Origin: Escherichia phage vB_EcoP_K
Reading direction: 5' to 3' (one strand)
Length of the DNA stretch: 37,775 bases
Sequence record: NC_047809.1
The stretch's first letter is position 1. Every line of letters starts with the position of its first letter. The translations under genes and the position numbers were made by a program. The notes under the pieces were generated by a model. It ran no database searches. It saw only the letters and a list, made by a program, of their open reading frames with translations, and was not told the DNA's origin. Positions 272-21,694 of the stretch are shown here, piece after piece.

Positions 272-1009
272 ATGCCTGTAATTAGACAAACCAGTAAAGT
301 AGGTCATATGATGGAAGATGTGGCCTTCCAGATTATTGATAGTAAGCTGGAAGCGGTAAACTTGTGTATGCGAGCTATTGGTCGTGAGGGTGTGGATTCT
401 CTCGACTCAGGTGACTTGGACGCAGAAGATGCAAGCAAGATGATCGACATCGTATCCCAGCGATTCCAGTACAACAAAGGAGGTGGCTGGTGGTTCAATC
501 GTGAACCAAACTGGCAGATTGCACCTGATACCAATGGTGAAGTCAATCTACCTAACAACTGCCTAGCAGTATTGCAGTGTTATGCTTTGGGTGAGAAGAA
601 AGTACCCATGACTATGCGAGCAGGTAAGCTCTACTCTACATGGAGTCATACCTTTGATATGCGTAAGCATGTGAATGCTAATGGTATGATTCGTCTTACC
701 TTACTTACCTTACTTCCATATGAGCATCTACCTACTAGTGTAATGCAGGCTATTGCCTATCAAGCTGCTGTAGAGTTTATTGTGTCTAAGGATGCAGATC
801 AGACTAAGCTAGCCACTGCACAGCAGATTGCCACTCAGCTTCTAATGGATGTGCAATCAGAACAAATGTCACAAAAGCGATTGAATATGCTTGTGCATAA
901 TCCTACGCAGCGTCAGTTCGGTATTATGGCAGGTGGTTCTCAGAATGCACCTGCTTACTCTCATTCACCATATGACAGTTGGGCACTTCGTCCGTGGGAG
1001 GATCGTTAA
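272..1009 (+). CDS. Tail tubular protein A (T7 gp11-like)
   Basis: AGGAGGG upstream of ATG 272; product has ...IGREGVDSLDSGD...GGGWWFN... resembling the N-terminal region of T7 gp11; position between capsid and gp12 homologue. Start uncertain (272 or 308). Confidence 0.65.
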   Translation: MPVIRQTSKVGHMMEDVAFQIIDSKLEAVNLCMRAIGREGVDSLDSGDLDAEDASKMIDIVSQRFQYNKGGGWWFNREPNWQIAPDTNGEVNLPNNCLAVLQCYALGEKKVPMTMRAGKLYSTWSHTFDMRKHVNANGMIRLTLLTLLPYEHLPTSVMQAIAYQAAVEFIVSKDADQTKLATAQQIATQLLMDVQSEQMSQKRLNMLVHNPTQRQFGIMAGGSQNAPAYSHSPYDSWALRPWEDR

Positions 1010-3408
1010 TGGAAGTACAAGGTTCATTAGGGAGGCAAATCCAAGGGATTAGCCAGCAACCACCAGCGGTACGTCTTGATGGCCAATGTACGACTATGGT
1101 GAACATGGTCCCTGATGTAGTGAATGGGACTCAATCCCGCATGGGTACAACTCACATTGCTAAGCTCTTGGATGAAGGTACAGATAATATGGCAACGCAC
1201 CATTATCGCAGGGGTGAGGGGGATGAAGAGTATTTCTTCACCTTAAAGAAGGGGCAAGTGCCAGAGATATTTGATAAGCATGGACGCAAGTGCAATGTCA
1301 CCTCTCAAGATGCACCTATGACCTACCTTTCTGAAGTTGTTAACCCTAGGGAAGATGTGCAATTCATGACTATAGCTGATGTTACTTTTATGCTTAACCG
1401 TAGGAAAGTGGTTAAAGTTAGTAATAGGAAGTCACCTAAAGTTGGAGATAAAGCCATTGTGTTTTGTGCATATGGTCAATACGGTACATCTTATTCTATC
1501 ATAATTAATGGAACTACAGCTGCTAGTTTTAAAACACCAGATGGGGGAAGTGCAGAACATGTTGAACAAATACGAACGGAACGTATCACTTCTGAATTGT
1601 ACTCCAAGTTGCAGCAATGGAGTGGTGTGAATGACTATGAAATACAAAGAGATGGTACGAGCATATTTATAAAGAGACGCGATGGTAAAAGTTTCACAGT
1701 AACAACTACCGATGGTGCAAAAGGTAAGGACTTAGTGGCTATCAAGAATAAAGTTAGCTCTACTGACCTACTCCCTTCTCGTGCGCCTGCTGGTTATAAA
1801 GTACAAGTGTGGCCTGCTGGCAGCAAACCTGAGTCTCGTTACTGGCTGCAAGCTGAGCCTAAAGAGGGAAACCTTGTGTCTTGGAAAGAAACAATAGCTG
1901 CTGATGTATTACTTGGGTTTGATAAAGGCACAATGCCTTACATTATTGAACGTACAGGTATCATCGACGGCATAGTTCAATTCAAGATAAGACAAGGTGA
2001 TTGGGAAGATCGTAAAGTAGGGGATGACTTGACTAACCCTATGCCCTCTTTTATTGATGAGGAAGTACCCCAGACAATAGGTGGAATGTTCATGGTGCAG
2101 AACCGCCTATGCTTTACAGCAGGTGAAGCGGTTATTGCTTCTCGTACATCATACTTCTTCGATTTCTTTCGTTATACGGTTATCTCTGCATTGGCAACTG
2201 ACCCATTTGATATTTTCTCAGATGCTAGTGAGGTCTACCAGCTAAAACATGCAGTGACCTTAGATGGCGCTACCGTGTTGTTCTCTGATAAGTCACAATT
2301 TATACTGCCAGGCGATAAGCCTTTAGAGAAGTCAAATGCATTGCTTAAGCCTGTTACAACATTTGAAGTGAACAATAAAGTGAAGCCAGTAGTAACGGGT
2401 GAATCAGTAATGTTTGCCACTAATGATGGTTCTTACTCTGGTGTACGAGAGTTCTATACAGACTCTTATAGTGACACTAAGAAGGCACAAGCAATCACAA
2501 GTCATGTGAATAAACTCATCGAAGGTAACATTACCAACATGGCAGCAAGCACCCATGTTAACAGGTTACTTGTCACTACCGATAAGTATCGTAACATAAT
2601 CTACTGCTACGATTGGTTATGGCAAGGAACAGACCGTGTACAATCAGCATGGCATGTATGGAAGTGGCCTATAGGTACAAAGGTGCGAGGTATGTTTTAT
2701 TCTGGTGAATTACTTTACCTGCTCCTTGAGCGAGGAGATGGCGTATATCTGGAGAAGATGGACATGGGTGATGCACTAACCTACGGTTTGAATGACCGCA
2801 TCAGAATGGATAGGCAAGCAGAGTTAGTCTTCAAGCATTTTAAAGCAGAAGATGAATGGGTGTCTGAACAGCTTCCTTGGACTCCTACTAACCCAGAGCT
2901 TTTGGATTGCATCTTAATAGACGGATGGGATTCATATATTGGTGGTTCTTTCCTATTCAAATACAACCCCGGTGATAACACCTTGTCTACAACCTTTGAT
3001 ATGCATGATAGCCACGTAAAAGCGAAGGTTATTGTTGGTCAGATTTACCCTCAAGAGTTTGAACCAACACCTGTAGTTATCAGAGATAGGCAAGACCGTG
3101 TATCCTATATTGATGTACCTGTTGTGGGGTTGGTTCACCTTAATCTTGATATGTATCCTGATTTCTCCGTGGAGGTTAAGAATGTGAAGAGTGGTAAAGT
3201 ACGCAGGGTGCTAGCGTCAAACCGCATAGGTGGCGCTCTCAACAATACAGTAGGTTATGTTGAACCGAGAGAGGGTGTCTTCAGATTCCCACTGAGAGCT
3301 AAGAGCACTGATGTTGTTTATCGTATTATTGTAGAGTCACCTCACACATTCCAGCTTCGTGATATTGAGTGGGAAGGAAGCTACAATCCAACCAAAAGGA
3401 GGGTCTAA
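1009..3408 (+). CDS. Tail tubular protein B (T7 gp12-like), 799 aa
   Basis: Start ATG overlaps gp11 stop (TAATG) with GGGAGGA upstream; N-terminus MEVQGSLGRQIQGISQQP resembles T7 gp12 N-terminus (..GGISQQP..); size and synteny. Confidence 0.85.
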   Translation: MEVQGSLGRQIQGISQQPPAVRLDGQCTTMVNMVPDVVNGTQSRMGTTHIAKLLDEGTDNMATHHYRRGEGDEEYFFTLKKGQVPEIFDKHGRKCNVTSQDAPMTYLSEVVNPREDVQFMTIADVTFMLNRRKVVKVSNRKSPKVGDKAIVFCAYGQYGTSYSIIINGTTAASFKTPDGGSAEHVEQIRTERITSELYSKLQQWSGVNDYEIQRDGTSIFIKRRDGKSFTVTTTDGAKGKDLVAIKNKVSSTDLLPSRAPAGYKVQVWPAGSKPESRYWLQAEPKEGNLVSWKETIAADVLLGFDKGTMPYIIERTGIIDGIVQFKIRQGDWEDRKVGDDLTNPMPSFIDEEVPQTIGGMFMVQNRLCFTAGEAVIASRTSYFFDFFRYTVISALATDPFDIFSDASEVYQLKHAVTLDGATVLFSDKSQFILPGDKPLEKSNALLKPVTTFEVNNKVKPVVTGESVMFATNDGSYSGVREFYTDSYSDTKKAQAITSHVNKLIEGNITNMAASTHVNRLLVTTDKYRNIIYCYDWLWQGTDRVQSAWHVWKWPIGTKVRGMFYSGELLYLLLERGDGVYLEKMDMGDALTYGLNDRIRMDRQAELVFKHFKAEDEWVSEQLPWTPTNPELLDCILIDGWDSYIGGSFLFKYNPGDNTLSTTFDMHDSHVKAKVIVGQIYPQEFEPTPVVIRDRQDRVSYIDVPVVGLVHLNLDMYPDFSVEVKNVKSGKVRRVLASNRIGGALNNTVGYVEPREGVFRFPLRAKSTDVVYRIIVESPHTFQLRDIEWEGSYNPTKRRV

Positions 3409-4133
3409 TGGCTATAGGTTCAGCCGTTATGTCTGGTATGTCTTCTCTAGGTAGTATGTTTGCAGGTAGCGGTGCAGCAGCCGCTGCTGGAGGTACTGCC
3501 GCAGCAGGTGGTGGAGGTTTACTAGGTTCCGTGGGAGGTTTCCTAAGTGGTTCCACTGGTGGCTTCTCCAATGCAGGCTTGCTTAGTGCAGGTATGCAAG
3601 GACTAGGGCTTATAGGTAATCTTTTTGGTGGAAGGGATGAAGCCAAAGCTATGAAGAAGGCTCAGGAGGAGCAATGGCGGCAGCAGTTAATTGCTACGCA
3701 GGAGGCATACAAAACAGTAGCAGATGCAGAACGCTCTGCTGCTAAACAGTACCATGCAGACGCAATAAGCAATCAGGCTTCACTACTACAGCAGCGAGCA
3801 CAGGTTGCATTACTTGCAGGTGCAACTGGTACTGGTGGTAACTCTGTGTCTTCTATGCTGAATGATTTGGCAGCAGAGGGAGGGAGAAACCAGAGTACAA
3901 TTATTGATAACTATGAGAATCAGAAGATTAATTTCACCAACCAGCTTAAGTCCATTCAACGCGGTGGACAGATGCAGATGCGTGAGTTTAAGAAGCCTTC
4001 TGCCGTAAGTACCTTGGTTCAAGGTATTCCAAGTCTTGCATCTGCCTATGTAATGGGTAGCAAGTCTGGTATGGCTTTAGGTAAAGCTTTAACTGATTCT
4101 CGTACATATTCATCTGGAACAAGAGGTATTTAA
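3408..4133 (+). CDS. Internal virion protein, glycine-rich N-terminus (gp13/gp14-position)
   Basis: ATG overlapping preceding stop, AAGGAGGG upstream; Gly/Ala-rich hydrophobic N-terminal third; synteny between gp12 and the large internal virion proteins. Confidence 0.5.
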   Translation: MAIGSAVMSGMSSLGSMFAGSGAAAAAGGTAAAGGGGLLGSVGGFLSGSTGGFSNAGLLSAGMQGLGLIGNLFGGRDEAKAMKKAQEEQWRQQLIATQEAYKTVADAERSAAKQYHADAISNQASLLQQRAQVALLAGATGTGGNSVSSMLNDLAAEGGRNQSTIIDNYENQKINFTNQLKSIQRGGQMQMREFKKPSAVSTLVQGIPSLASAYVMGSKSGMALGKALTDSRTYSSGTRGI

Positions 4134-7081
4134 TGGCAATTGAGCGACAAGCAGTACAAGGTCTGCCACAAGTGCAGGCCACTTCTCCTAATGTCATGAC
4201 CTTTGCACCTCAGCAAGTTGGAGGTGTGGAGGCTGGCGTAGCTTCTACCTCCGGTAGTCGATTTATCGAAGACCTTATTCGAGCAGCCAGCAGTGTAGCT
4301 GATGTTACCACTGGTATCCTTAATCAGAAGATTGAGGAAGATAAGGTTGTTCAAATGGAACGGGCATATAATGGATTAATGCCCTCTGAGGATGCAACTC
4401 GTGGTGGCGCTCGTGCTAACATGCTTGTCAAAGCTCAACTGCTGGCTAATGATGAAGCAGCACGAATGAAAGACATGGCTACTCGTTTCCAAGGAACGGA
4501 TGACGAGTGGACACAACTCATGGTCGATTCTCGTAATGAGATGCAGAATAAGCTGTTCCAGCAATACCCAGAGTTGCAAGGTGACAAAGATACTATGCGT
4601 ATGGTCACTAATGTCTTCCAAGAACAGCAGCCTCAGATTTGGGCTACACGAACCAAGCATAAACTTGACCGTGAACAAGCAGACCGTGAGGATACCTTTG
4701 ACGGGCGAGTGGCTTCTACTTGGGATTCTAATATTGACCCTGAGGCCTCTGGCTATGCTTTACAGGAACGAATCCGCGAAGGTCTGACTCAAGGATTACT
4801 ACCTGAACAGATGTACAAGAAGTTAGTCCAGCGGGCAATTTCACTTGCACAAGGTGGGGATGTTAGCATGGCTGAAGCCCTGAAGTATGTGAAGGACGAT
4901 AAGGGCGTTTCTGTTTATGCTAAGAATCCACAGCTTATCACAGCCATCACTAGTGGTAATGCAGTTTGGGCTAGGAATAATGTAGCTGATGTAACTCGTA
5001 TGTCTTTCGAAGTTAAAGAATCATACCTTGCAGGCGATTTAACTGATGAAGAATTATTGGAACGAGCACAGCACATTAATAATCTGACAGGTAACTCTGT
5101 CTTCTCTAATCCAGAGCTAGAGGCACTGATGCGCCAACGGGCTAAGCAGAATGCAGAGCTAGGTGCAATGCAGGATATGCGACGTGAGCTTTACTCCGAC
5201 CGCCTGACTGGCTTCCAAGGTAAGACTGATAAAGAGAAGAAGGCTTACATTGATGTTATCAAACAGGATAGCCAACTTTATGCAGACCAGCAAATCAAAC
5301 AACGTGGCTTGGACCCTTACAGTCAAGAGGCTGAAGCTATTCGTGGTGCAGTGGAAGTGCAGCGCCTGCAATTCATGAACTCCAAAGGCTTAGTGGATGA
5401 TACCTTTGAGTCTCGTATCAAAGCCATGGAATCTATGCTATCTCCTGAGCACTTTGCCAAGGGCGAACCACAGGAGTTGATGACTATTCGTCAGTTGTGG
5501 GAACAGTTGCCAGAAGAGAGCCGAGGTGTCTTTGGTGACACGGTGAATGGCTACATGGATAACTACAACACTGCACTACAAATGGGAGAGACACCTTTGC
5601 AGGCTGCAAGGTTTGCGCGTGAAGCACAGCAGAAATTCTCTCGTACTGAGAAGGAAAACAAGAAGTTCAACTCAGCTATTGGAGATGCACTGGATGAGGT
5701 ATCTGGTGCTGGCTGGTTTGATGGTAAAACCGAAGTGTCAGACTTAGGTAAAGCTATTGCGGAAGAAGAGTTACGAGCTAAGGCCAATATGCTGTGGTCT
5801 AGCGGTATGCGTAACATGGATTCTATCAAGAAGGCTTTAATTACTTGGGGCAATAAACGCTACACTCAATCAGAGGATGCAAAGACTTCAGGTGGCTATT
5901 TCATTAAAGGTGATTACACTTCTGCATCTGATATGCTTATGTCAGTTGGGAAAGGTGTAAACCCTACCGATGTCCCTCTGGCGCTTGGTAGGTATGTAGA
6001 AACACAGATGCCAGAATTGAAGAAGGAGCTTCAAGAGTGGGAAACTAAGGATGATGTGTACATTGATTACAATGAACAGAAAGGAACTTTTGTGATTCGT
6101 GCTGGTGCAGCAGGTCGCCCTCTTTCTGGAGTAATCCCTGTAACTTCTTTGGATACCACTTCACTACTGGATTCTGCCTATCAGAAGAAAGTAGAAGAAC
6201 GAGACAAAGGCGAGTATGTTCATCCCTATCGTACAGGTATCGGTGCACAAGAACCAATGCCAGCTAAGCCAACTGCCAAAGATATTGGTAAATTTGGACT
6301 AGCTAACTTCCTCATGTCTTCTGCTTTTGCTTCTGGTGAGAATCTGCCTTCTAACTTCGAGATTAACTATCGAGGTAATATGCAACAATTCTATGACAAG
6401 CTAGCTATGGATGAGAATAAAGATAAAGTTGGCTTTAATAAGGCAACTGGAACCTTTACTCCATATAAAGACGCTCACGGTGAGTCTATCGGTTACGGTC
6501 ATTTCTTAACGGAAGAAGAGAAGCGAAACGGGTATATTAAGATTGGCGATGAACTAGTTCCCTATCGAGGGTCTATGTCTCAGCTTACAGAGAGTAAGGC
6601 TCGCGCTCTTATGGAGCAAGATGCTAAGAAGCATGTGCCTCCTACTCGTGACTGGAAGATTCCGTTTGACCAGATGCATCCTGCACAGCAACGTGGCTTG
6701 ATGGATTTAACCTACAATTTAGGTAAAGGTGGAATCCAGAACTCACCGCGTGCTCTTGCTGCATTCAAAGCTGGTAAACTTACGGAAGGCTTTATCGAAA
6801 TGCTGGGTACTGCATCTAGTGAAGGTAAACGTGTTTCTGGCTTACTGAAGCGACGTGCTGAGGCTTACAATATGGCATCTGCTGGTGGTGTGCCTAAGAT
6901 TACCGAAGTGGAGACTCGTGAAGATGGCTCCATGTGGGTTAGATTTGGTGGCCCTATGCCAGCAGGTTCTGTCTCGGCATGGACTCATAAACTTATTGGC
7001 GCGGATGGTTGGTATCAGGTTTATGATGCTGCACCTACCAAGTTAGCTAAAGATTCTAAGGTAGGTAAAGTTAAATTGTAG
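4133..7081 (+). CDS. Internal virion (ejection) protein with C-terminal lysozyme-like muralytic domain, 982 aa
   Basis: Residues ~778-900 (nt ~6464-6830) carry YKDAHGESIGYGH...LMDLTYNLGKGG...ALAAFKAG resembling T4/P22-type lysozyme motifs (YKDTEGYYTIGIGH; ..IFNIGKSAFAGS..); size and position typical of podovirus core proteins. Confidence 0.7.
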   Translation: MAIERQAVQGLPQVQATSPNVMTFAPQQVGGVEAGVASTSGSRFIEDLIRAASSVADVTTGILNQKIEEDKVVQMERAYNGLMPSEDATRGGARANMLVKAQLLANDEAARMKDMATRFQGTDDEWTQLMVDSRNEMQNKLFQQYPELQGDKDTMRMVTNVFQEQQPQIWATRTKHKLDREQADREDTFDGRVASTWDSNIDPEASGYALQERIREGLTQGLLPEQMYKKLVQRAISLAQGGDVSMAEALKYVKDDKGVSVYAKNPQLITAITSGNAVWARNNVADVTRMSFEVKESYLAGDLTDEELLERAQHINNLTGNSVFSNPELEALMRQRAKQNAELGAMQDMRRELYSDRLTGFQGKTDKEKKAYIDVIKQDSQLYADQQIKQRGLDPYSQEAEAIRGAVEVQRLQFMNSKGLVDDTFESRIKAMESMLSPEHFAKGEPQELMTIRQLWEQLPEESRGVFGDTVNGYMDNYNTALQMGETPLQAARFAREAQQKFSRTEKENKKFNSAIGDALDEVSGAGWFDGKTEVSDLGKAIAEEELRAKANMLWSSGMRNMDSIKKALITWGNKRYTQSEDAKTSGGYFIKGDYTSASDMLMSVGKGVNPTDVPLALGRYVETQMPELKKELQEWETKDDVYIDYNEQKGTFVIRAGAAGRPLSGVIPVTSLDTTSLLDSAYQKKVEERDKGEYVHPYRTGIGAQEPMPAKPTAKDIGKFGLANFLMSSAFASGENLPSNFEINYRGNMQQFYDKLAMDENKDKVGFNKATGTFTPYKDAHGESIGYGHFLTEEEKRNGYIKIGDELVPYRGSMSQLTESKARALMEQDAKKHVPPTRDWKIPFDQMHPAQQRGLMDLTYNLGKGGIQNSPRALAAFKAGKLTEGFIEMLGTASSEGKRVSGLLKRRAEAYNMASAGGVPKITEVETREDGSMWVRFGGPMPAGSVSAWTHKLIGADGWYQVYDAAPTKLAKDSKVGKVKL

Positions 7082-7145: not shown

Positions 7146-10100
7146 ATGGAACAAGATATTAAGACTAATTGGGCTGGATATGTCCAGTCTACTCCTGAGC
7201 CGTTTTCTATTGAGGCGGCTCCGGTATCGGCTCCTACGATACGCCAGCGTAATGAGTTACAAGAGCAAGTTCTTGAAGCCAAAGCTGATGCGGACATCTT
7301 AGGTGCTGTAGGTGCTGCCTTCCAGAATGAATGGTTGGCATTTGGAGGTAAGCGATGGTATGACCGTGCCACTGCTGATTTCACACCTCAACCTGACTTT
7401 GAAATCCAACCGGAGCAACGTGAAGCTCTTCGCTTCAAATACGGCACGGATATGATGCAGACAATCATTGAGGGTGTTCGTTCTGAGGATGAATTGAACT
7501 TCCGTATTCAGAATGCTGATGAAGACCTTGAGCGTAATAAACGTATTGCGCAGGCTGGCTGGGTTGGCTCTGTGGCAACGATTGGTGCTGCTGTGCTCGA
7601 CCCTGTTGGCTGGGTTGCCTCTATTCCAACCGGTGGTGCAGCTAAAGTTGGGCTTGTAGGCCGTGCTGTGCGTGGTGCTATCGCCGCTGGCGTGAGTAAT
7701 GCCGCTATTGAATCCGTATTGGTCCAAGGTGACATGACTCGTGATTTAGATGACATTATGGTGGCACTAGGCTCGGGCATGGCGATGGGTGGCGTTATCG
7801 GCGCTGTAGCGCGTGGTAGGGCCACTAAGCTCAGTGAGCAAGGGGATGACAGAGCGGCAAGCATTGTGCGCAGTGCAGACGCAGGGGACCGCTATGTGCG
7901 TGCTGTTGCTGATGACAGTATCGGTGCGATGCGTGTTAAGGGTGAAGAGGTACTCACTGAGGGTGCATTCGATATCTCTAGCAAAGGTGAAGATTTGCTG
8001 AAAACCCTACAGCGGGAAGGTAATGCAATTGATATGACACCTCGCCGCTGGGCCGGAACTATGTCTGCCCTTGGTACTGTCGTGCACTCCTCTCAGGATG
8101 CAAGTGTACGTGGTCTTGGTGCTCGCCTGTTTGAGTCCCCGCAAGGCTTAGGTGCACAGAAGGCATCGGCTAGTCTCATGCAGAATACTAACTTGAATCG
8201 TCTGAAATCTGCTGATATGAACCGTTTCAATGATGGGTTCGATTTATGGCTCAAAGAGAATAATATCAATCCGGTTGCAGGTCATACTAACTCTCACTAT
8301 GTGCAGCAATATAATGAGAAGGTATGGGAAGCTGTACGCATCGGTATGGATGAGTCTACGCCTAAGTCTATCCGTATGGCAGCAGAGGGGCAGCAAGCTA
8401 TGTATCGAGAAGCCTTAGCTTTACGGAAGAGCTCTGGTGAAGCTGGGTTTGAAAAGGTTAAAGCAGATGATAAGTACATGCCTGATATTTTTGACAGTAT
8501 GAAGGCTCGTCGTCAATTTAGTATGCACGATAAGGAGGACATCATTGAGCTATTCTCTCGTGCATACCAGAATGGTTCTCGTAAGGTTCCAAAGGAAGTG
8601 GCTGATGAGATTGCACGTGCACAAGTAAACCGTGTTGTGGATGCCACTCTGACAGGACGTATGAGTTTCGAAAAGGCTATGTCTGGTCAGACTAAAGCAG
8701 AGTATGAAGCAATAATGCGCAAGGCAGGCTTCAGTGATGAAGAAATTGAAAAGATGGTAGAAGCTCTTGATAATAAAGAAACCAGAGATAATATCTCTAA
8801 CCGAGCTAAGATGAGTTTAGGCTTAGATGTTACTCAAGAGTACAATGGCATTCGTATGCGTGACTTTATGAATACTAACGTGGAAGAGTTGACAGATAAC
8901 TACATGAAGGAAGCGGCAGGTGGTGCTGCCTTGGCTCGTCAAGGTTTCTCTACCTATCAGGCTGCACTTAATGCAATTGACCTTGTAGAGCGAAATGCAC
9001 GAAATGCAGCTAAAGATACAAAAGCACACGCACAATTTGAAGCGGAGTCTGCTAAGATTCGTCAATCAGAGCCTGATTACAAGAAGGCACAAGAGAAGAT
9101 TGAAGAGTTAAAGAAGCGACTTAAATTGAAAGAGAAAGATGAAGCAGCGGGTCTGGCTATTGATGAAGAAATCCGTCAGATGCGAGAAGGGCTTCGCTTA
9201 ATTATGGGTAAATCTATCGATGCAGACCCACAGGCTTTATCTACTAAAATGCTGCGTCGTGGTCGTGATATTACAGGTGTACTTCGCTTAGGTCAGATGG
9301 GCTTCGCACAGCTAGGTGAACTTGCTAACTTCATGGGTGAGTTTGGTATTGCTGCAACCACTATAGCTTTAGGTAAGCAATTCCGCTTTACATCTAAGGC
9401 TTTGCGGAGCGGTGATGGCTTCTTCCGAGATAAGAACTTGGCAGAAGTAGAGAGGATGGTAGGTTACATTGGTGAGGATAACTGGCTAACAACCAAGGGT
9501 GCACGTCCAGATGAGTTTGGTGATGTAACCACAGTAAGAGGGATGATGGCTCACTTTGACCAATCCATGAACTCAATACGTCGTGCTCAAACCAACCTAT
9601 CACTCTTCCGCATGGCACAGGGTTCTCTGGAGCGAATGACCAATAGGCAAATAGCTTTGTCTTTCATTGACCACCTTGAAGGCAAGAAGATTATTCCTCA
9701 GAAGAAACTGGAGGAACTTGGTCTTACTCAGGAGTTCATGACTAACCTACAGAAGCACTATGATGCTAACTCTAAAGGTTCTGGCTTGCTTGGCTTTGAT
9801 ACAATGCCTTATGCCATGGGTGAAACTTTAGCTAATGCTATTCGTCGTAAGTCAGGTCTAATTATCCAACGTAACTTCATTGGTGATGAAGGTATCTGGA
9901 TGAACAAAGCACTAGGTAAGACATTTGCACAGCTTAAGTCATTCTCTCTTGTATCTGGTGAGAAGCAATTTGGTCGAGGGATTCGCCACGATAAAATTGG
10001 TCTTGCTAAGAAGACAGCTTACGGGTTTGCTTTGGGTTCAATAGTGTATGCGGCAAAAGCCTATGTGAACTCTATTGGGCGAGAAGACCAAGATGAATAT

Positions 10101-10454
10101 TTGGAAGAGAAGTTATCGCCTAAAGGGTTGGCCTTTGGTGCAATGGGTATGATGAGTACAACTGCTGTATTTAGTCTAGGTGGAGATTTCTTGGGTGGCC
10201 TAGGTGTTCTACCTTCTGAGTTAGTACAATCCCGTTATGAGGCTGGCTTTCAGACTAAGGGTTTGATAGACCAAATACCACTAGTAGGTGTTGGTCAAGA
10301 TGCATATCGTTTAGCAGATTCTATAACTAAATATGCAGAGGGTGATACAGAAGGTGTAGATGTGGCACGTAGGGCTTTACGCTTAGTGCCTCTAACTAAT
10401 GTAATAGGAATCCAGAACGCATTGCGTTATGGCTTAGATGAACTGGAGGATTGA
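7146..10454 (+). CDS. Large internal virion/core protein (T7 gp16-position), 1102 aa
   Basis: GGAGG 5 nt upstream of ATG; long mostly alpha-helical, charged protein directly downstream of the lysozyme-domain core protein; synteny with T7-like ejection proteins. Confidence 0.6.
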   Translation: MEQDIKTNWAGYVQSTPEPFSIEAAPVSAPTIRQRNELQEQVLEAKADADILGAVGAAFQNEWLAFGGKRWYDRATADFTPQPDFEIQPEQREALRFKYGTDMMQTIIEGVRSEDELNFRIQNADEDLERNKRIAQAGWVGSVATIGAAVLDPVGWVASIPTGGAAKVGLVGRAVRGAIAAGVSNAAIESVLVQGDMTRDLDDIMVALGSGMAMGGVIGAVARGRATKLSEQGDDRAASIVRSADAGDRYVRAVADDSIGAMRVKGEEVLTEGAFDISSKGEDLLKTLQREGNAIDMTPRRWAGTMSALGTVVHSSQDASVRGLGARLFESPQGLGAQKASASLMQNTNLNRLKSADMNRFNDGFDLWLKENNINPVAGHTNSHYVQQYNEKVWEAVRIGMDESTPKSIRMAAEGQQAMYREALALRKSSGEAGFEKVKADDKYMPDIFDSMKARRQFSMHDKEDIIELFSRAYQNGSRKVPKEVADEIARAQVNRVVDATLTGRMSFEKAMSGQTKAEYEAIMRKAGFSDEEIEKMVEALDNKETRDNISNRAKMSLGLDVTQEYNGIRMRDFMNTNVEELTDNYMKEAAGGAALARQGFSTYQAALNAIDLVERNARNAAKDTKAHAQFEAESAKIRQSEPDYKKAQEKIEELKKRLKLKEKDEAAGLAIDEEIRQMREGLRLIMGKSIDADPQALSTKMLRRGRDITGVLRLGQMGFAQLGELANFMGEFGIAATTIALGKQFRFTSKALRSGDGFFRDKNLAEVERMVGYIGEDNWLTTKGARPDEFGDVTTVRGMMAHFDQSMNSIRRAQTNLSLFRMAQGSLERMTNRQIALSFIDHLEGKKIIPQKKLEELGLTQEFMTNLQKHYDANSKGSGLLGFDTMPYAMGETLANAIRRKSGLIIQRNFIGDEGIWMNKALGKTFAQLKSFSLVSGEKQFGRGIRHDKIGLAKKTAYGFALGSIVYAAKAYVNSIGREDQDEYLEEKLSPKGLAFGAMGMMSTTAVFSLGGDFLGGLGVLPSELVQSRYEAGFQTKGLIDQIPLVGVGQDAYRLADSITKYAEGDTEGVDVARRALRLVPLTNVIGIQNALRYGLDELED

Positions 10455-14561: not shown

Positions 14562-14906
14562 ATGCTTAACAAACACTTCAAGCGCCGTGAGTTCGCTTGC
14601 CGTTGTGGGTGCGGTACATCCACAGTAGATGCTGAGTTACTACAGGTAGTCACAGATGTACGTGAGCACTTTGGTGCTCCTGTAGTTATTACTTCTGGAC
14701 ACCGCTGTGCTAAGCACAATGCTAATGTGGGAGGTGCTAAGAACTCCATGCATCTTACTGGTAAGGCTGCTGACATTAAGGTACAAGGTATTACACCTTA
14801 CCGTGTGTGGTCCTATCTAACAGCACGCTACCCCAATAAATATGGCATTGGGTCTTATCCTAATTTCACCCACATTGATGTAAGAGAGGGATGTGCACGA
14901 TGGTAA
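14562..14906 (+). CDS. Endolysin, zinc metallopeptidase of the M15/LAS type (probable L-alanyl-D-glutamate or D-Ala-D-Ala peptidase)
   Basis: 114 aa with ..SGHRCAKHNANVGGAKNSMHLTGKAADIKV.. and ..FTHIDVRE.. (H-x6-D and distal H zinc ligands typical of LAS peptidases, as in T5 endolysin); followed by membrane protein and spanins. Confidence 0.75.
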   Translation: MLNKHFKRREFACRCGCGTSTVDAELLQVVTDVREHFGAPVVITSGHRCAKHNANVGGAKNSMHLTGKAADIKVQGITPYRVWSYLTARYPNKYGIGSYPNFTHIDVREGCARW

Positions 14907-15984: not shown

Positions 15985-18420
15985 ATGATTCAAAGACTAG
16001 GTTCTTCATTAGTTAAATTCAAGAGTAAAATAGCAGGTGCAATCTGGCGTAACTTGGATGACAAGCTCACCGAGGTTGTATCGCTTAAAGATTTTGGAGC
16101 CAAAGGTGATGGTAAGACAAACGACCAAGATGCAGTAAATGCAGCGATGGCTTCAGGTAAGAGAATTGACGGTGCTGGTGCTACTTACAAAGTATCATCT
16201 TTACCTGATATGGAGCGATTCTATAACACCCGCTTCGTATGGGAACGTTTAGCAGGTCAACCTCTTTACTATGTGAGTAAAGGTTTTATCAATGGTGAAC
16301 TCTATAAAATCACGGATAACCCTTATTACAATGCTTGGCCTCAAGACAAAGCGTTTGTATATGAGAACGTGATATATGCACCTTACATGGGTAGCGACCG
16401 TCATGGTGTTAGTCGTCTGCATGTATCATGGGTTAAGTCTGGTGACGATGGTCAAACATGGTCTACTCCAGAGTGGTTAACTGATCTGCATCCAGATTAC
16501 CCTACAGTGAACTATCATTGTATGAGTATGGGTGTATGTCGCAACCGTCTGTTTGCCATGATTGAAACACGTACTTTAGCCAAGAACGCACTAACCAATT
16601 GTGCATTGTGGGATCGCCCTATGTCTCGTAGTCTGCATCTTACTGGTGGTATCACTAAGGCTGCAAATCAGAGATATGCAACAATCCATGTACCTGATCA
16701 CGGACTCTTCGTTGGTGATTTTGTTAACTTCTCTAACTCTGCGGTAACAGGTGTATCTGGTGATATGAAGGTTGCAACAGTAATAGATAAGGACAACTTC
16801 ACGGTTCTTACACCTAACCAGCAGACTTCAGATTTGAATAACGCTGGAAAGAGTTGGCACATGGGTACTTCTTTCCATAAATCTCCTTGGCGTAAGACAG
16901 ATCTTGGTCTAATCCCTCGTGTCACAGAGGTGCATAGCTTTGCTACTATTGATAACAATGGCTTTGTTATGGGCTATCATCAAGGTGATGTAGCTCCACG
17001 AGAAGTTGGGCTTTTCTACTTCCCTGATGCTTTCAATAGCCCATCTAATTATGTTCGTCGTCAGATACCATCTGAGTATGAACCAGATGCGGCAGAGCCA
17101 TGCATCAAGTACTATGACGGTGTATTGTACCTTATCACTCGTGGTACTTGTGGCGATCGACTAGGAAGCTCTCTGCATCGTAGTAGAGATATAGGTCAAA
17201 CTTGGGAGTCACTAAGATTTCCACATAATGTTCATCATACTACCTTACCTTTTGCTAAAGTAGGAGATGACCTTATTATGTTTGGTTCAGAACGTGCAGA
17301 AAATGAATGGGAAGCAGGTGCACCAGATGATCGTTACAAGGCATCTTATCCTCGTACCTTCTATGCACGATTGAATGTAAACAAGTGGAATGCAGATGAC
17401 ATTGAATGGGTTAACATCACAGACCAAATCTATCAGGGTGACATTGTGAACTCTAGTGTAGGTGTAGGTTCGGTAGTAGTTAAAGACAGCTACATTTACT
17501 ATATCTTTGGTGGAGAAAACCATTTCAACCCAATGACTTATGGTGACAACAAAGATAAAGACCCATTTAAAGGTCATGGACACCCCACTGATATATACTG
17601 CTATAAGATGCAGATTGCAAATGACAATCGTGTATCTCGTAAGTTTACATATGGTGCAACTCCGGGTCAGGCTATACCTACCTTCATGGGTACTGATGGT
17701 ATTCGTACTATTCCTGCTCCACTTCACTTATCAGGAGAGGTAGTTGCCGCAGATATGACTGTCGAACACCTTACCCTGAAGGCAAGTACAAGTGCTAATA
17801 TTCGCTCAGAGATGCTGATGGAAGGTGAATATGGGTTCATTGGTAAGACTATACCAACGGATAACCCAACTGCCCAACGTGTCATCATCTCTGGTGGAGG
17901 GGGTACAGCAGCAGATACCGGTGCGCAAATTACCTTACATGGAGCAGGTTCTAGTACTTCTAGACGCGCAGTATATAATGCCAATGAGCACTTGTTCCAA
18001 AGCGGGGCTATCATGCCATACAATGATAACGTGTATCCTGCTGGCGGCCCTCGTAATAGATTCACTACTATCCATCTTACAAGTGACCCTATTATTACGT
18101 CTGATGCCACTCATAAGTATGGATCACAAGGTATTGATGAGGGTGTACTAAAGGCATGGGGCAAGGTTGCCTTCAAGCAGTACAAGTTGATTGGAGAGAT
18201 GTCTAGTGGTGTGCATCACACTCACTTTGGTGTATTGGCACAAGACATTGTAGCTGCTTTTGCATCCGAAGGGTTAGATGCAATCGACTTCGGCATTGTC
18301 TCCTTCGAAGAAGGTCAGTTTGGTGTTAGATATAGTGAAATCTTAATCTTGGAGGCTGCTTATACTCGTTATCGTTTAGACAAGTTAGAGGAGATGTATG
18401 CCACTAATAAAACCAGTTAA
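15985..18420 (+). CDS. Endosialidase (endo-N-acetylneuraminidase) tailspike with C-terminal intramolecular chaperone domain, 811 aa
   Basis: AAGGAGG RBS; sialidase Asp-boxes SGDDGQTWS and SRDIGQTWES; C-terminal ..GVHHTHFGVLAQDIV..FGVRYSEILILEAAYTRYRLDKLEE.. typical of the autocleaved chaperone domain of phage endosialidases; 811 aa is the size I recall for the K1E enzyme. Confidence 0.9.
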   Translation: MIQRLGSSLVKFKSKIAGAIWRNLDDKLTEVVSLKDFGAKGDGKTNDQDAVNAAMASGKRIDGAGATYKVSSLPDMERFYNTRFVWERLAGQPLYYVSKGFINGELYKITDNPYYNAWPQDKAFVYENVIYAPYMGSDRHGVSRLHVSWVKSGDDGQTWSTPEWLTDLHPDYPTVNYHCMSMGVCRNRLFAMIETRTLAKNALTNCALWDRPMSRSLHLTGGITKAANQRYATIHVPDHGLFVGDFVNFSNSAVTGVSGDMKVATVIDKDNFTVLTPNQQTSDLNNAGKSWHMGTSFHKSPWRKTDLGLIPRVTEVHSFATIDNNGFVMGYHQGDVAPREVGLFYFPDAFNSPSNYVRRQIPSEYEPDAAEPCIKYYDGVLYLITRGTCGDRLGSSLHRSRDIGQTWESLRFPHNVHHTTLPFAKVGDDLIMFGSERAENEWEAGAPDDRYKASYPRTFYARLNVNKWNADDIEWVNITDQIYQGDIVNSSVGVGSVVVKDSYIYYIFGGENHFNPMTYGDNKDKDPFKGHGHPTDIYCYKMQIANDNRVSRKFTYGATPGQAIPTFMGTDGIRTIPAPLHLSGEVVAADMTVEHLTLKASTSANIRSEMLMEGEYGFIGKTIPTDNPTAQRVIISGGGGTAADTGAQITLHGAGSSTSRRAVYNANEHLFQSGAIMPYNDNVYPAGGPRNRFTTIHLTSDPIITSDATHKYGSQGIDEGVLKAWGKVAFKQYKLIGEMSSGVHHTHFGVLAQDIVAAFASEGLDAIDFGIVSFEEGQFGVRYSEILILEAAYTRYRLDKLEEMYATNKTS

Positions 18421-18769: not shown

Positions 18770-18829
18770 TCAAATGAGGTAACATGAAAGACCTACTGTT
18801 AGCCCTCTTATGCACAGCATGTATCTATG

Positions 18830-18887
18830 GCCCACACCCTCATGCCCTGTCAAACGCTCAGGAATGGCCCTAAAACGGCCTGTGTAA
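18830..18887. repeat. 58-bp direct repeat, copy 1
   Basis: GCCCACACCCTCATGCCCTGTCAAACGCTCAGGAATGGCCCTAAAACGGCCTGTGTAA; identical copy at 19266-19323. Confidence 0.9.
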
Positions 18888-19025
18888 CAATAGATACAGA
18901 GCTAGGATAGGCTAGATTGGCTAGGTTTAGGGTGTTCCTCCTACTGCATCTTATCACTATTACCTACTCTCAGCGGTCTACCGACCGCGACCTAATTGCA
19001 TCTTATAGCTTTAGCTATGCAATCA

Positions 19026-19160
19026 CTAAGGTCTGGCACTAAGACTAACTAAGGTACACTACTAAGTTGATACTAAGCTAAGCACTAAGGCTTTAACTAA
19101 GGCAACCCACTAAGGCTAACCTAAGCCATCCATCAAGGAATAACCTAAGGTACACGTGAG
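19026..19160. repeat. Array of about 11 degenerate heptamers (A/C)CTAAG(G), genome-terminus-like
   Basis: CACTAAGG, AACTAAGG, TACTAAG.. recur at short irregular spacing; analogous to the CCTAAAG-type repeats of T7 genome ends; four more copies at 19325-19420. Confidence 0.7.
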
Positions 19161-19183
19161 CGAGTGAACGGAGCGCAAGCGGA

Positions 19184-19239
19184 GTGAGGAGCAGTGAGTG
19201 AGGAGCAGTGAGTGAGGAGCAGTGAGTGAGGAGCAGTGA
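19184..19239. repeat. Tandem repeat, 4 x 14 bp (GTGAGGAGCAGTGA) plus partial copies
   Basis: Exact tandem copies visible in GGAGTGAGGAGCAGTGAGTGAGGAGCAGTGAGTGAGGAGCAGTGAGTGAGGAGCAGTGAGTGAAGCG. Confidence 0.9.
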
Positions 19240-19265
19240 GTGAAGCGTAGCGAAACGAACAGATA

Positions 19266-19323
19266 GCCCACACCCTCATGCCCTGTCAAACGCTCAGGAA
19301 TGGCCCTAAAACGGCCTGTGTAA
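19266..19323. repeat. 58-bp direct repeat, copy 2
   Basis: Identical to 18830-18887; copies are 436 bp apart and bracket the heptamer and tandem-repeat region. Confidence 0.9.
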
Positions 19324-19583
19324 GCCCTAAGCGGTTGCACTAAGGCAATCACCTTGTCCAATACTAAGGCGCGCCCTAGCGCTTCCTAGGTGTTCTCCTT
19401 GTGCAGCCACTAAGAGCAGACCTCGGCAAGCCCTAGGCCACCCGTCGAGCTTCCTGCGGCAGCAGGTTGAAGACGGACCAGCCCAGCCCAATTCCCAAGC
19501 CAACCGCAGCGCGTTTAAATAGTCACGGGCAAGAGTGCTACATAGTGCAACGTAAAGTATTAGGCTCAATATGGGTCACGTGT

Positions 19584-19706
19584 ATGATGCCTATTGGCTA
19601 TACTGATACAGAGGCTATCTTCTGCACCGAAAGGGATGCAAAGAAGTTTATCTCTAAGCGTAGAAAAGCTGACTCTTACCAACCCAGAACTATTAAGGTG
19701 AACTAA
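19584..19706 (+). CDS. Short ORF reading into the primase start (open from 19467; start ambiguous), possible 5'-truncated gene remnant
   Basis: Frame open for 79 codons ending TAATG overlap with primase ATG; first in-frame ATG pair at 19584 lacks a clear RBS. Confidence 0.25.
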   Translation: MMPIGYTDTEAIFCTERDAKKFISKRRKADSYQPRTIKVN

Positions 19707-21694
19707 TGGCTATTATTAATAACATCCCGTGCCCTGCCTGCCAGAAGAATGGACACGATAAATCCGGCAATCATCTCATGATATTTGATGATGGTGCTGG
19801 CTATTGTAACCGTGGTCATTTCCACGATAACGGCAAGCCTTACTATCATAAGCCAGATGGTGGCATCGAGATCACCGAGTTGCCTATTACTGGCAATATC
19901 AAATATACACCTTCTCAATTCAAAGAGATGGAGAAGGAAGGGAAGATAAGCGACCCTAAGTTACGCGCCATCGCACTTGGTGGCATGCGTATGAAAGACC
20001 GATGGGAGGTCATGAATGAGCAAGAAAGGGCAGACCAAGAAGCAGAGTGGAAACTTGATGTTGAATGGTTCCTCACGCTTAAGCGTAAGAATCTTGTTTC
20101 CCGACACATTCGCGGCGACATTTGCGCATTGTATGATGTACGTGTCGGACACGATGAAGAGGGTAGAGTCTCACGGCATTACTATCCACGCTTCGAGAAA
20201 GGTGAACTAGTAGGCGCTAAGTGTCGCACATTACCTAAAGACTTTAAGTTTGGTCATTTAGGTAAACTCTTTGGTATGCAAGATCTTTTCGGGATGAATA
20301 CTTTGTCTCACGTGTTAGACAAGGGAAGACGAAAGGATCACTTGCTCATTGTCGGCGGCGAACTGGATGCACTAGCAGCACAGCAAATGCTCCTTGATTC
20401 TGCCAAGGGTACTAAGTGGGAAGGCCAGCCTTACCATGTATGGTCTGTCAATAAAGGTGAGTCTTGCCTTGAAGAGATAGTACAGAACCGTGAACACATC
20501 GCCCAATTTAAGAAGATTATATGGGGTTTTGATGGAGATGAGGTAGGGCAGAAGCAGAATCAGCAAGCGGCTCGCCTGTTTCCTGGCAAATCCTATATCC
20601 TTGAATACCCTTCTGGTTGCAAAGATGCTAACAAGGCATTGATGGCTGGCAAGGCTAAAGAGTTTGTTGATGCTTGGTTTAATGCCAAGTCATCTGATGA
20701 AGTCTTTGGTAGCCATATTAAATCTATCGCATCTCAAAGGGATAAGCTCAAGGCTGCACGTCCAGAGCAAGGGCTATCATGGCCTTGGCCTAAGCTGAAC
20801 AAGGTAACGCTAGGTATTCGTAAGAACCAGCTTATCATTGTAGGTGCAGGCTCTGGTGTAGGTAAGACTGAGTTCCTCCGCGAAGTGGTTAAACATCTTA
20901 TTGAAGAACATGGTGAATCTGTAGGCATCATTTCTACAGAAGACCCGATGGTCAAGGTGTCCCGTGCTTTTATCGGTAAGTGGATTGATAAGCGCATTGA
21001 GTTACCGCCAACCAATGACCCGAAAGAAGACGGATACCGTGAGGTGTTCGACTATACTGAGGAAGAGGCTAATGCCGCCATTGATTATGTAGCTGATACA
21101 GGGAAGCTGTTTGTAGCTGACCTAGAGGGTGACTATTCTATGGAGAAGGTAGAGCAAACTTGCCTAGAGTTTGAGGCTATGGGCATTTCTAATATCATCA
21201 TTGATAACTTAACGGGGATTAAATTAGATGAGCGTGCTTTTGGTGGGAAGGTTGGTGCACTTGATGAATGCGTCAAACGAATTGGTACTATCAAAGATCG
21301 ACATGCGGTTACGATTTTCCTTGTCTCTCACCTTACACGTCCTCCGGCAAACCGTACCCAACACGAAGAAGGTGGCGAAGTTATCCTTTCTGACTTCCGA
21401 GGCTCAGGCGCTATCGGATTCTGGGCATCTTACGCCTTGGGGATTGAGCGTAATACAAGAGCTGAAACGCTTGATGAAAGGACTACCACGTACATCTCAT
21501 GTGTCAAAGACCGCGACCAAGGTATCTACACTGGAACCAAGGTCATGCTTAAGGGTGACATTCAAACCGGACGTTTAATGGAACCACAAGCTCGTACTAA
21601 GTCATTTGATACAGGTGAAGCAAGGCAACAAGAAGTACCTGATTTACCAGACACTATAGAAGGGACTAACTTCGATGAAGAAAGTGAGTTCTGA
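19706..21694 (+). CDS. DNA primase-helicase (T7 gp4-like), 662 aa
   Basis: N-terminal zinc-binding CPACQKNGHD...CNRGHFH; helicase Walker A GAGSGVGKTEF; acidic C-terminus ending ..FDEESEF as in T7 gp4. Confidence 0.9.
   Translation: MAIINNIPCPACQKNGHDKSGNHLMIFDDGAGYCNRGHFHDNGKPYYHKPDGGIEITELPITGNIKYTPSQFKEMEKEGKISDPKLRAIALGGMRMKDRWEVMNEQERADQEAEWKLDVEWFLTLKRKNLVSRHIRGDICALYDVRVGHDEEGRVSRHYYPRFEKGELVGAKCRTLPKDFKFGHLGKLFGMQDLFGMNTLSHVLDKGRRKDHLLIVGGELDALAAQQMLLDSAKGTKWEGQPYHVWSVNKGESCLEEIVQNREHIAQFKKIIWGFDGDEVGQKQNQQAARLFPGKSYILEYPSGCKDANKALMAGKAKEFVDAWFNAKSSDEVFGSHIKSIASQRDKLKAARPEQGLSWPWPKLNKVTLGIRKNQLIIVGAGSGVGKTEFLREVVKHLIEEHGESVGIISTEDPMVKVSRAFIGKWIDKRIELPPTNDPKEDGYREVFDYTEEEANAAIDYVADTGKLFVADLEGDYSMEKVEQTCLEFEAMGISNIIIDNLTGIKLDERAFGGKVGALDECVKRIGTIKDRHAVTIFLVSHLTRPPANRTQHEEGGEVILSDFRGSGAIGFWASYALGIERNTRAETLDERTTTYISCVKDRDQGIYTGTKVMLKGDIQTGRLMEPQARTKSFDTGEARQQEVPDLPDTIEGTNFDEESEF
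21642..21664 (+). promoter_or_regulatory. SP6-class phage RNAP promoter (within 3' end of primase-helicase gene)
   Basis: ATTTACCAGACACTATAGAAGGG; two mismatches to the consensus upstream half; +1 G at 21659. Confidence 0.6.

Follow-up and report, generated by a model that had tools for sequence, protein, structure and literature searches.

Gene 35 of the Escherichia phage vB_EcoP_K encodes a 982-residue protein (gp35) that carries a T4-type (GH24) lysozyme domain near its C-terminus. The protein is very probably a gp15-type ejection protein whose linker-tethered GH24 muramidase opens the cell wall at entry, a reading built on domain identity, fold, conservation, residue equivalences, gp15 homology and gene context, all computed here. 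A virion lysozyme on a gp15-like ejection protein of a K1-5-like coliphage is already known and annotated in databases. The present analysis adds a corrected extent of the domain, a reasoned case for E761 as the proposed catalytic glutamate, and the recognition of a large "E-N" subfamily marked by an inserted loop, results that could be of use for mutagenesis or for engineering virion-associated lysins.

A GH24 lysozyme domain near the C-terminus of gp35

The window, that is the whole stretch of 37,775 nucleotides analysed (NC_047809.1), represents a Vectrevirus (K1-5/K1E-like) genome. Positions 6410-6835 translate to DENKDKVGFNKATGTFTPYKDAHGESIGYGH...NLGKGG...SSEGKRV, corresponding to aa 760-901 of the 982-aa ORF, and the first-pass annotation had placed here a lysozyme-like domain of T4/P22 type near the C-terminus of an internal core protein. 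Pfam, phmmer and hhalign confirmed the domain well beyond chance, and the fold was borne out as GH24, the two-lobed alpha/beta type of T4 lysozyme, with Pfam, hhalign, AF2 and Foldseek in agreement. The profile search that had been proposed as a check matched the GH24 family above the cutoff (PF00959 Phage_lysozyme, E=3.4e-10, 40.7 bits versus a curated gathering cutoff of 22.3, aa 776-910), phmmer matched T4 lysozyme (T4L) chains with E=7e-4, and hhalign aligned the profile of the gp35 domain family with that of the T4L family from aa 776 on (probability 99.9, E=1.6e-34). The AF2 model of the domain has a pLDDT of 95.9 and a pTM of 0.89, and its Foldseek matches include R21 (3hde), T4L, DLP12 (4zpu) and PHAb11 (9kbs), all with probability 1.00; the GH24 matches gave TM(target) values of 0.55-0.64 over about 180 aligned columns spanning the whole targets. 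A search of the domain profile against the PDB likewise matched 6et6, the 8b2s GH24 muramidase, T4L and T4 gp5.

PF00959 was the sole Pfam match in gp35 at E<=1, with neither GH19 (Glyco_hydro_19) nor any SLT family found at that threshold; GH19 and SLT assignments were rejected for want of profile matches. Among NCBIfam models only BgtA matched the domain, far below threshold (18 bits versus a cutoff of 315).

The location originally given (6410-6835, aa ~778-900) was correct, but its extent was too narrow, since the AF2 model places the domain at aa 746-916 (Table 1). The narrower interval cuts off most of helix 1 and the entire last helix with the invariant R907. It opens at D760-E761, so that the codon of the putative catalytic glutamate (6413-6415) falls inside.

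Table 1. Features of the gene 35 region and related genes in the window
Feature	Position	Strand	Basis
gp14-like internal virion protein, upstream	3369..4133	+	PF24072 T7_gp14 E=1.2e-32; phrog_805
Gene 35-like ORF for a gp15-like ejection (internal core) protein of 982 aa bearing a C-terminal lysozyme	4133..7081	+	ORF list, nucleotide identity, PHROG
N-terminal gp15-like region, aa 1-692	4133..6208	+	AF2 full-length model, Foldseek
Predicted flexible linker, aa 693-738	6209..6346	+	pLDDT <50 (AF2 full-length model)
GH24 (T4-type) lysozyme domain, aa 746-916	6368..6880	+	Pfam, AF2, Foldseek, hhalign
E761, proposed catalytic general acid and T4L Glu11 equivalent, followed by invariant N762	6413..6415	+	Conservation, AF2, hhalign
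Loop insertion N769-T776	6437..6460	+	8-column hhalign gap, alignment slice
D780...S785, candidate equivalents of T4L Asp20 and Thr26, motif YKDAHGESIGYGH	6470..6487	+	phmmer (T4L 17-133), hhalign
H790, equivalent to T4L His31, invariant 45/45	6500..6502	+	phmmer, hhalign
D830, equivalent to T4L Asp70 (His31 partner in T4L), invariant 45/45	6620..6622	+	QD aligned to QD (phmmer, hhalign)
R907, equivalent to T4L Arg145, invariant 45/45, outside 6410-6835	6851..6853	+	KRRAEAY aligned to NRAKRVI (hhalign)
Small C-terminal beta-rich domain, aa 923-982	6899..7078	+	AF2
gp16-like internal virion protein (gp36), 1102 aa, downstream, without N-terminal muralytic module	7146..10454	+	Pfam, phrog_342
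Dedicated lysis endolysin, peptidase M15	14562..14906	+	PF08291 E=5.5e-33

Carrier protein and gene context

At the nucleotide level, the ORF is 99.3% identical to its counterpart in vB_EcoP_B and 97.5% identical to K1-5 gene 35, which bears the RefSeq product name "lysozyme domain-containing protein", and phrog_4290 matches the ORF over its full length. The earlier description of the carrier as an internal core or ejection protein is upheld by the position of the gene between T7_gp14-family and gp16-like genes and by the match of the N-terminal ~690 aa to T7 gp15. In the full-length AF2 model, aa 1-61 are of low confidence and aa ~60-692 are nearly all alpha-helical. The top five Foldseek matches of this model are all T7 gp15 chains (9jyy_G, 7k5c_A, 6yt5_A, 7eyb_A and 6ysz_A; E values of 4e-7 to 2e-2, probability 1.00), and the alignments run over 708-732 columns for the four longest and over 304 for 6ysz_A. 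TM scores against T7 gp15 reach only 0.2-0.33 (rmsd ~24 A); such low values are consistent with a different conformation but do not amount to a tight match. Neither phmmer nor Pfam gave a sequence-level match of gp35 to gp15.

Beyond the lysozyme domain, the model predicts with high pLDDT a small beta-rich domain comprising strands 923-928, 934-938, 960-964 and 978-981 and a helix at 949-954. Its sole match is the tail of phrog_4290, and it is conserved in Molineuxvirinae homologues; it could be a regulatory or peptidoglycan-anchoring module.

The upstream gp14-like gene appears in the window as a mechanical ORF of 254 aa, compared with 240 aa for its annotated homologue. For the downstream gp36, the match to phrog_342 ("internal virion protein with endolysin domain") has E=1e-247 but is confined to positions 162-1227 of the 1235 in the profile, and no Pfam family, SLT included, was found in gp36 at E<=0.01. 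The homologue of the M15 endolysin gene in NC_047806.1 is annotated "endolysin, peptidase M15" and lies beside holin and spanin (Rz-like) genes. The window itself, a closed circular permutation, lacks ~6.2 kb, phage RNA polymerase included; this gap, at about 18,800-19,750, may be either a genuine loss or a product of assembly.

A displaced candidate for the catalytic glutamate

Homologues of the domain were gathered by tblastn against phage records and by an HMMER scan of representatives; a protein homologue search with the domain or with a 7-sequence profile returned only 3-4 fragmentary matches. Across 45 diverse sequences with identities down to 23-30%, six residues are invariant (E761, N762, G789, H790, D830 and R907), and E761 is also retained in all 23 full-length homologues. 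The first-pass annotation had found no obvious glutamate at the T4-lysozyme spacing. There is indeed none nine residues before D780, but the invariant E761 lies 19 residues upstream, in the last turn of a predicted helix (aa 746-762). In a two-step alignment, E761 pairs with the glutamate of the "EG" motif ("EGLPKNGK") of an intermediate subfamily (hhalign probability 99.9, E=1.2e-31), and the latter in turn aligns to T4L E11 (probability 100, E=7e-47). The catalytic mechanism, previously called uncertain, is thus not really so, given an invariant Glu that closes helix 1 and can be traced to T4L Glu11 by way of the intermediate subfamily. We therefore propose, from conservation, alignment and the predicted model, that E761 is a displaced catalytic glutamate and the counterpart of T4L Glu11.

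The displacement from the canonical spacing (19 versus 9 residues before the Asp) is due to the loop N769-T776, which makes this stretch 8 residues longer than in the intermediate subfamily and, as that subfamily already exceeds T4L by 2, 10 residues longer than in T4L. The assignment depends on the intermediate subfamily because direct hhalign of the gp35 family with T4L gives no confident alignment of helix 1. In global mode, hhalign sets T4L E11 opposite V766 with near-zero confidence at that point, and this candidate was rejected in favor of E761 on the grounds of invariance, helix-end position and the two-step alignment.

D780 and S785 may correspond to the water-positioning Asp20 and Thr26 of T4L. 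This assignment of the second carboxylate, made by sequence alignment, is less secure because Ser occupies the D780 column in 39 of the 45 EN-type family members and gp35 has S785 where Thr is usual (40 of the 45). Members of this family usually have Asp immediately before the Thr, a position held by E784 in gp35, making E784 an alternative second carboxylate.

The "E-N" form, defined by the invariant Glu-Asn pair and an 8-10-residue extra loop ahead of strand 1, occurs in 56 of the best 150 cluster representatives and, among those looked at, mostly on ejection or tail proteins. The distance from the Glu to the Thr26 equivalent is 24-31 residues in 50 of the 56 EN-type representatives, compared with 15 in T4L and the commonest canonical class. 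It is conceivable, though rather unlikely, that this GH24 form is a functionally distinct and undescribed subclass, for which refolding after tail passage, altered cleavage chemistry and capsid latency are candidate explanations.

Proposed role in entry and alternative readings

The enzymatic activity, virion location and entry role of gp35 are drawn from the literature or by inference, the activity coming from reviews. Going by the T7 and PhiM1 structures and by reviews, gp35 would be carried in the capsid's internal core and leave through the tail when the phage infects. The helical ~690 residues at its N-terminus would help form an oligomeric conduit for the DNA across the periplasm, as T7 gp15 does, with the ~45-residue predicted flexible linker tethering the C-terminal GH24 muramidase. 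The enzyme would locally cut the MurNAc-GlcNAc glycan of peptidoglycan, allowing the conduit to pass the cell wall. In such a reaction E761 would act as the general acid while D780 and S785 position the attacking water, and the putative pairs H790-D830 and E761-R907 would reproduce His31-Asp70 and Glu11-Arg145 of T4L.

The cleavage chemistry could differ. Lambda lysozyme is a GH24 transglycosylase, likewise with a long spacing between the Glu and the first strand. The long insertion at this place in gp35, together with the Ser that most family members have in the Asp20 column, would be compatible with a GH24-fold lytic transglycosylase that, like lambda R, yields 1,6-anhydroMurNAc and so performs the chemistry of T7 gp16 on another fold. 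However, gp35 itself keeps an Asp at the position of T4L D20 and a hydroxyl at that of T26, both of which hold the hydrolytic water in T4L, the enzymes it matches best by structure and by profile are GH24 hydrolases in type, and reviews give the K1-5 and SP6 activities as "lysozyme" (PMC5380687); a transglycosylase is accordingly improbable. Still less probable is a catalytically silent domain serving as a capsid-core packing or DNA-spooling element, or anchoring the conduit by binding peptidoglycan. The absence of the canonical Glu spacing would suit such a role, but the counterparts of the catalytic Glu of T4L and of the Arg that pairs with it do not vary across 45 divergent sequences, virion-associated lysozyme activity of K1-5 and SP6 is recorded in reviews (PMC8954989, PMC5380687), and a structural role is compatible with catalysis.

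It has once been suggested for SP6 that such a domain is the lysis enzyme, sole or second, acting from within late in infection. SP6 has been cited as a phage with one muralytic gene for two functions, entry and lysis, and in T7 a deleted lysozyme can be replaced through evolution of gp16 (PMC2680503). For gp35 this is highly doubtful: with a dedicated M15 endolysin present in the window, and a holin/spanin lysis cluster in the near-identical reference, its lysozyme is not needed for lysis. Moreover, gp35 would be sequestered into capsids, and no signal or SAR sequence is evident in its model, in which a disordered N-terminus is followed by helices. A muramidase carried by the ejection protein and acting at entry remains the preferred reading.

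Comparison with known systems

K1-5 gp35, K1E gp35 and SP6 gp36 (Moak & Molineux 2004; Scholl et al. 2004) are the same gene as the ORF described here, and a few percent of sequence divergence is all that separates them from it, nothing of substance. K1-5 gp35, sharing the above nucleotide identity over its full length, also has 982 aa and also lies between genes 34 and 36, and SP6 gp36 is 63% identical in amino acids over the C-terminal 269 aa. K1-5 YP_654136.1 and SP6 gp36 have been counted among the virion-associated lysozymes with reference to Moak & Molineux 2004 (PMC5380687), and the gp35 proteins of K1E and K1-5 have been described as gp15-like with lysozyme activity (PMC8954989). In the literature consulted on the K1-5, K1E and SP6 proteins, neither E761 as the displaced catalytic Glu nor the domain boundaries were found.

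The phiKMV gp36 protein (NP_877475.1; Lavigne 2004; Briers 2006) shows the same layout, with a C-terminal GH24 domain on a ~900-aa internal virion protein in the gp15 position next to a gp16-like neighbor. Its C-terminal lysozyme (gp36C) has an activity of 4800 U/mg and is still active after treatment at 95 C (PMC5380687). Both proteins share the YKDAxGxSxGxGH motif, but phiKMV gp36 has the canonical spacing, its E lying 9 residues ahead of the D in FEAYRGEAYKD, and lacks both the E-N motif and the loop insertion. BLASTP of the gp35 domain against gp36C matched only the 15-residue YKDA..GH motif; gp36C was therefore rejected as a close homologue and is regarded as an architectural analogue and distant GH24 relative. 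In addition, the annotation of phiKMV gp37 gives that protein an endolysin domain of its own, whereas gp36 of vB_EcoP_K has none.

PhiM1 belongs to a different subfamily of Autographiviridae, and the cryo-EM structure of its ejectosome places a lysozyme-like domain on an octameric gp15-type protein packaged in the capsid core (PMC11440229). This domain of PhiM1 gp49 (Gly718-Ser903) occupies nearly the same residue range as that of gp35 (PMC11440229), a likeness drawn from its description, and no PDB chain of the PhiM1 ejection protein appeared among the sequence-profile or fold matches.

T7 gp16 carries a GH23-type lytic transglycosylase on its N-terminus (residues 1-156, catalytic E37) (PMC8954989), and entry depends on it where the cross-linking of peptidoglycan is high (PMC8954989, PMC2680503). 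The proposed role of gp35 is the same, a muralytic module being taken into the periplasm by an ejection protein. As the first-pass annotation had recognized, enzyme family and position differ from T7, and so does the carrier: the module here is GH24 in place of a GH23-type SLT, and it sits on the gp15 homologue in place of gp16 and at the C-terminus in place of the N-terminus. The gp36 of vB_EcoP_K lacks the N-terminal transglycosylase part of T7 gp16, the first ~161 phrog_342 positions being missing. The SP6, K1-5 and phiKMV groups, with a lysozyme on the gp15-type ejection protein, represent the textbook alternative to the T7 transglycosylase on gp16, and the gp35 arrangement exemplifies how muralytic modules are exchanged in mosaic fashion between ejection proteins.

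The fold is shared with T4 lysozyme (gpe) and with the GH24 tail lysozyme T4 gp5, which is also virion-borne. T4L is ~18-20% identical to the gp35 domain, with the proposed correspondences E761/E11, D780/D20, S785/T26, H790/H31, D830/D70 and R907/R145. Relative to T4L, gp35 has 10 residues inserted behind the Glu and is one residue shorter from the Asp to the Ser/Thr, and it bears additional loops as well as the appended beta domain.

The lysozyme domain of gp35

The gene 35-like ORF (gp35) matches 63 phage records at the megablast level, all of them Vectrevirus (Autographiviridae, Molineuxvirinae), with Escherichia phage vB_EcoP_B as the top match (99.3%) and K1-5 and K1E at ~97.5%. Its K1-5 counterpart, gene 35 (YP_654136.1), is flanked by gene 34 (internal virion protein) and gene 36 and carries the RefSeq product name "lysozyme domain-containing protein", which is also the name of PHROG 4290, a full-length match to the 982-aa ORF. 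For K1-5/SP6-type phages, the lysozyme on this protein is already known and annotated, and the present finding re-describes it.

Features discussed, with positions in the window
Feature	Position (nt)	Strand	Basis or remark
Gene 35-like ORF, 982 aa	4133..7081	+	megablast, PHROG and RefSeq naming
Lysozyme domain, gp35 aa ~746-916	6368-6880	+	AlphaFold2 model
Small beta-rich domain, gp35 aa 923-982	6899-7078	+	confident AlphaFold2 prediction
gp16-like protein, 1102 aa	7146-10454		downstream of gene 35; PHROG 342
Peptidase M15 endolysin, 114 aa	14562-14906		PF08291, E=5.5e-33
Endosialidase tailspike	15985..18420
Primase/helicase	19706..21694		1.3 kb after endosialidase tailspike

The first-pass annotation had placed a lysozyme-like domain at 6410-6835, and translation recovers its quoted motifs at aa 760-901. 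The profile search for muralytic families that it proposed returns PF00959 (Phage_lysozyme) as the sole Pfam family in gp35 (E=3.4e-10, 40.7 bits vs a cutoff of 22.3, aa 776-910), and phmmer against PDB sequences returns T4 lysozyme (T4L; best E=7e-4), whose residues 17-133 align with aa 777-890 of gp35. A family profile of 45 homologous domains, compared by hhalign with a profile of canonical GH24 domains anchored on T4L, reaches a probability of 99.9 (E=1.6e-34), and also matches the PDB sequences of 6et6, the GH24 muramidase 8b2s, 9kbs, T4L, and the T4 gp5 tail lysozyme. Collectively, the Pfam, phmmer, hhalign, and PDB profile matches indicate that the domain is real, far beyond chance.

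Structure prediction, the other proposed check, likewise yields a GH24 lysozyme fold. The AlphaFold2 model of aa 735-982, built with the 45-sequence alignment, has a pLDDT of 95.9 and a pTM of 0.89, and its Foldseek matches in the PDB include the GH24 lysozymes of phage 21 (R21, 3hde), many T4L entries, DLP12 (4zpu), and PHAb11 (9kbs), with a probability of 1.00, alignments of ~180 columns that cover entire targets, and TM(target) of 0.55-0.64. In BFVD, the best match comes from Erwinia phage S2, whose 953-aa "Lysozyme" is homologous to gp35. The predicted fold runs from a helix at aa 746-762 through a helix at aa 902-915; the earlier range of 778-900 is therefore too narrow. The beta-rich domain beyond is kept in Molineuxvirinae homologues, matched neither a Pfam family nor a structural relative, and may serve in docking or in peptidoglycan binding.

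Catalytic residues and sequence forms

The PF00959 match covers profile positions 9-124 of 125, leaving the profile start, the site of the catalytic Glu, unaligned. The initial remark that a glutamate at the T4L spacing is not obvious holds in that the residue 9 positions ahead of D780 is not a Glu; there is one, E761, 19 positions ahead of it. Across the 45-sequence alignment, whose members reach down to 23-30% identity with the window's domain, E761, N762, G789, H790, D830, and R907 are invariant, and E761 is also invariant among 23 full-length homologues. By alignment, D780, S785, H790, D830, and R907 correspond to T4L Asp20, Thr26, His31, Asp70, and Arg145. The T4L pairs Glu11-Arg145 and His31-Asp70 make the invariant set of gp35 coherent. 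Both the domain and full-length models place E761 in the final turn of helix 1, where Glu11 is found in T4L.

Because direct hhalign comparison with T4L is unreliable around E761, a bridging subfamily with "EEGLPKNGKAYKDAHGYSIGYGH" was used. Its Glu falls opposite E761 in the alignment with the gp35 domain family (prob 99.9, E=1.2e-31), which has an 8-residue gap facing N769-T776 of gp35, and the same Glu falls opposite Glu11 in the alignment with the T4L family (prob 100, E=7e-47). From conservation, alignments, and predicted helix position, we conclude that E761 is the probable catalytic acid, shifted in sequence by a loop insertion. The second carboxylate, D780 as the putative Asp20 equivalent, is less certain, since its column is mostly Ser in the subfamily and E784 lies in a column that is usually Asp.

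GH24 domains related to that of gp35 (representatives P0005-P0154) take at least two sequence forms, the canonical "E-G" form, with Glu 15 residues ahead of the Thr26 equivalent, and an "E-N" form with the signature EN(S/G)x(K/R)xG(F/Y/W)(N/D)...W.P(H/Y). A HMMER scan of 1.84 billion proteins gave 292 matches at E<=1e-3, and 56 of the best 150 cluster representatives, which were classified, have the "E-N" form. The distance from Glu to the Thr26 equivalent is 24-31 residues in 50 of these 56, vs 15 in T4L. Eighteen of the 56 are proteins of at least 850 aa with the domain near the C-terminus, including P0021, which aligns with K1-5 gp35 across nearly its full length.

Arrangement of the window

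A blastn comparison shows the window to be a vB_EcoP_B-like Vectrevirus genome in closed, circularly permuted form, with window positions 1 and 37775 corresponding to 41611 and 41613 of the reference record. About 6.2 kb is missing relative to this reference (record 15856-~22046), or about 5.8 kb relative to K1-5 (positions 549-6383), comprising early genes, an ocr-like gene, a 294-aa gene, and the phage RNA polymerase. The junction (~18,827-19,513) holds ~0.6 kb of left-end non-coding sequence, in pieces and in inverted orientation, and is shared by none of the phage records searched. This rearranged region contains a 14-nt tandem repeat (GAGTGAGGAGCAGT, about 5 copies, 19182-19251) and a 61-nt direct repeat (18827-18887 and 19263-19323, 436 nt apart). 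The window is either a defective/deleted genome or an assembly artefact.

Entry versus lysis

By analogy with T7 and PhiM1, gp35 would be packaged in the capsid core, expelled via the tail, and help build a periplasmic conduit, where the lysozyme on its flexible tether would hydrolyse nearby peptidoglycan. A published table of virion-associated lysozymes includes the K1-5 protein YP_654136.1 and SP6 gp36 (PMC5380687), and gp35 of K1E and of K1-5 is described elsewhere as gp15-like and as having lysozyme activity (PMC8954989). In the cryo-EM ejectosome of PhiM1, an octameric ejection protein bears a lysozyme-like domain (G718-S903; PMC11440229). The C-terminal lysozyme of phiKMV gp36 is active and thermostable (PMC5380687); its Glu spacing is canonical, unlike that of the gp35 domain, to which it is only distantly similar. 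An older idea gives the gp35-type lysozyme domain a second role, that of lysis enzyme (PMC2680503; PMC4837284). The window argues against this, as lysis appears from gene content to be covered by a dedicated M15 endolysin, annotated beside holin and Rz-like spanin genes in a near-identical reference.

Carrier protein and comparison with T7

In the full-length gp35 model, built from 23 sequences (mean pLDDT 78.6), aa ~60-692 form a nearly all-helical body, followed by a linker modelled with low confidence (aa 693-738, pLDDT <50), the lysozyme, and the beta domain. In Foldseek, its highest-ranking matches are gp15 chains of T7, taken from mature-core and ejectosome structures (9jyy_G, 4e-7; 7k5c_A, 3e-6; 6yt5_A, 2e-5; then 7eyb_A and 6ysz_A), all with a probability of 1.00; alignment length is 708-732 columns for the four longest and 304 for 6ysz_A. 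Global TM-scores to T7 gp15 are low, which is expected of a protein with a known conformational change. The ORF upstream of gene 35 matches Pfam T7_gp14 (E=1.2e-32). For the downstream gp16-like ORF, the alignment to PHROG 342 ("internal virion protein with endolysin domain") does not begin until profile position 162 of 1235, and the Pfam scan gave no SLT match, indicating that this ORF lacks the transglycosylase region of T7 gp16. Other PHROG 342 members carry an N-terminal muralytic module, and SP6 gp37 (1270 aa) is 168 aa longer than the window's protein. The comparison suggests that, in this group, gain and loss of muralytic modules can affect either ejection protein.

The contrast with T7 drawn in the first-pass annotation is borne out by PF00959, the gp15 Foldseek matches, and the PHROG 342 start: the muralytic module belongs to another family, on another ejection protein, at the opposite end. 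In T7 it is a lytic transglycosylase at gp16 residues 1-156 (PMC8954989), whereas here it is a GH24 domain on the C-terminal side of a gp15-like protein.
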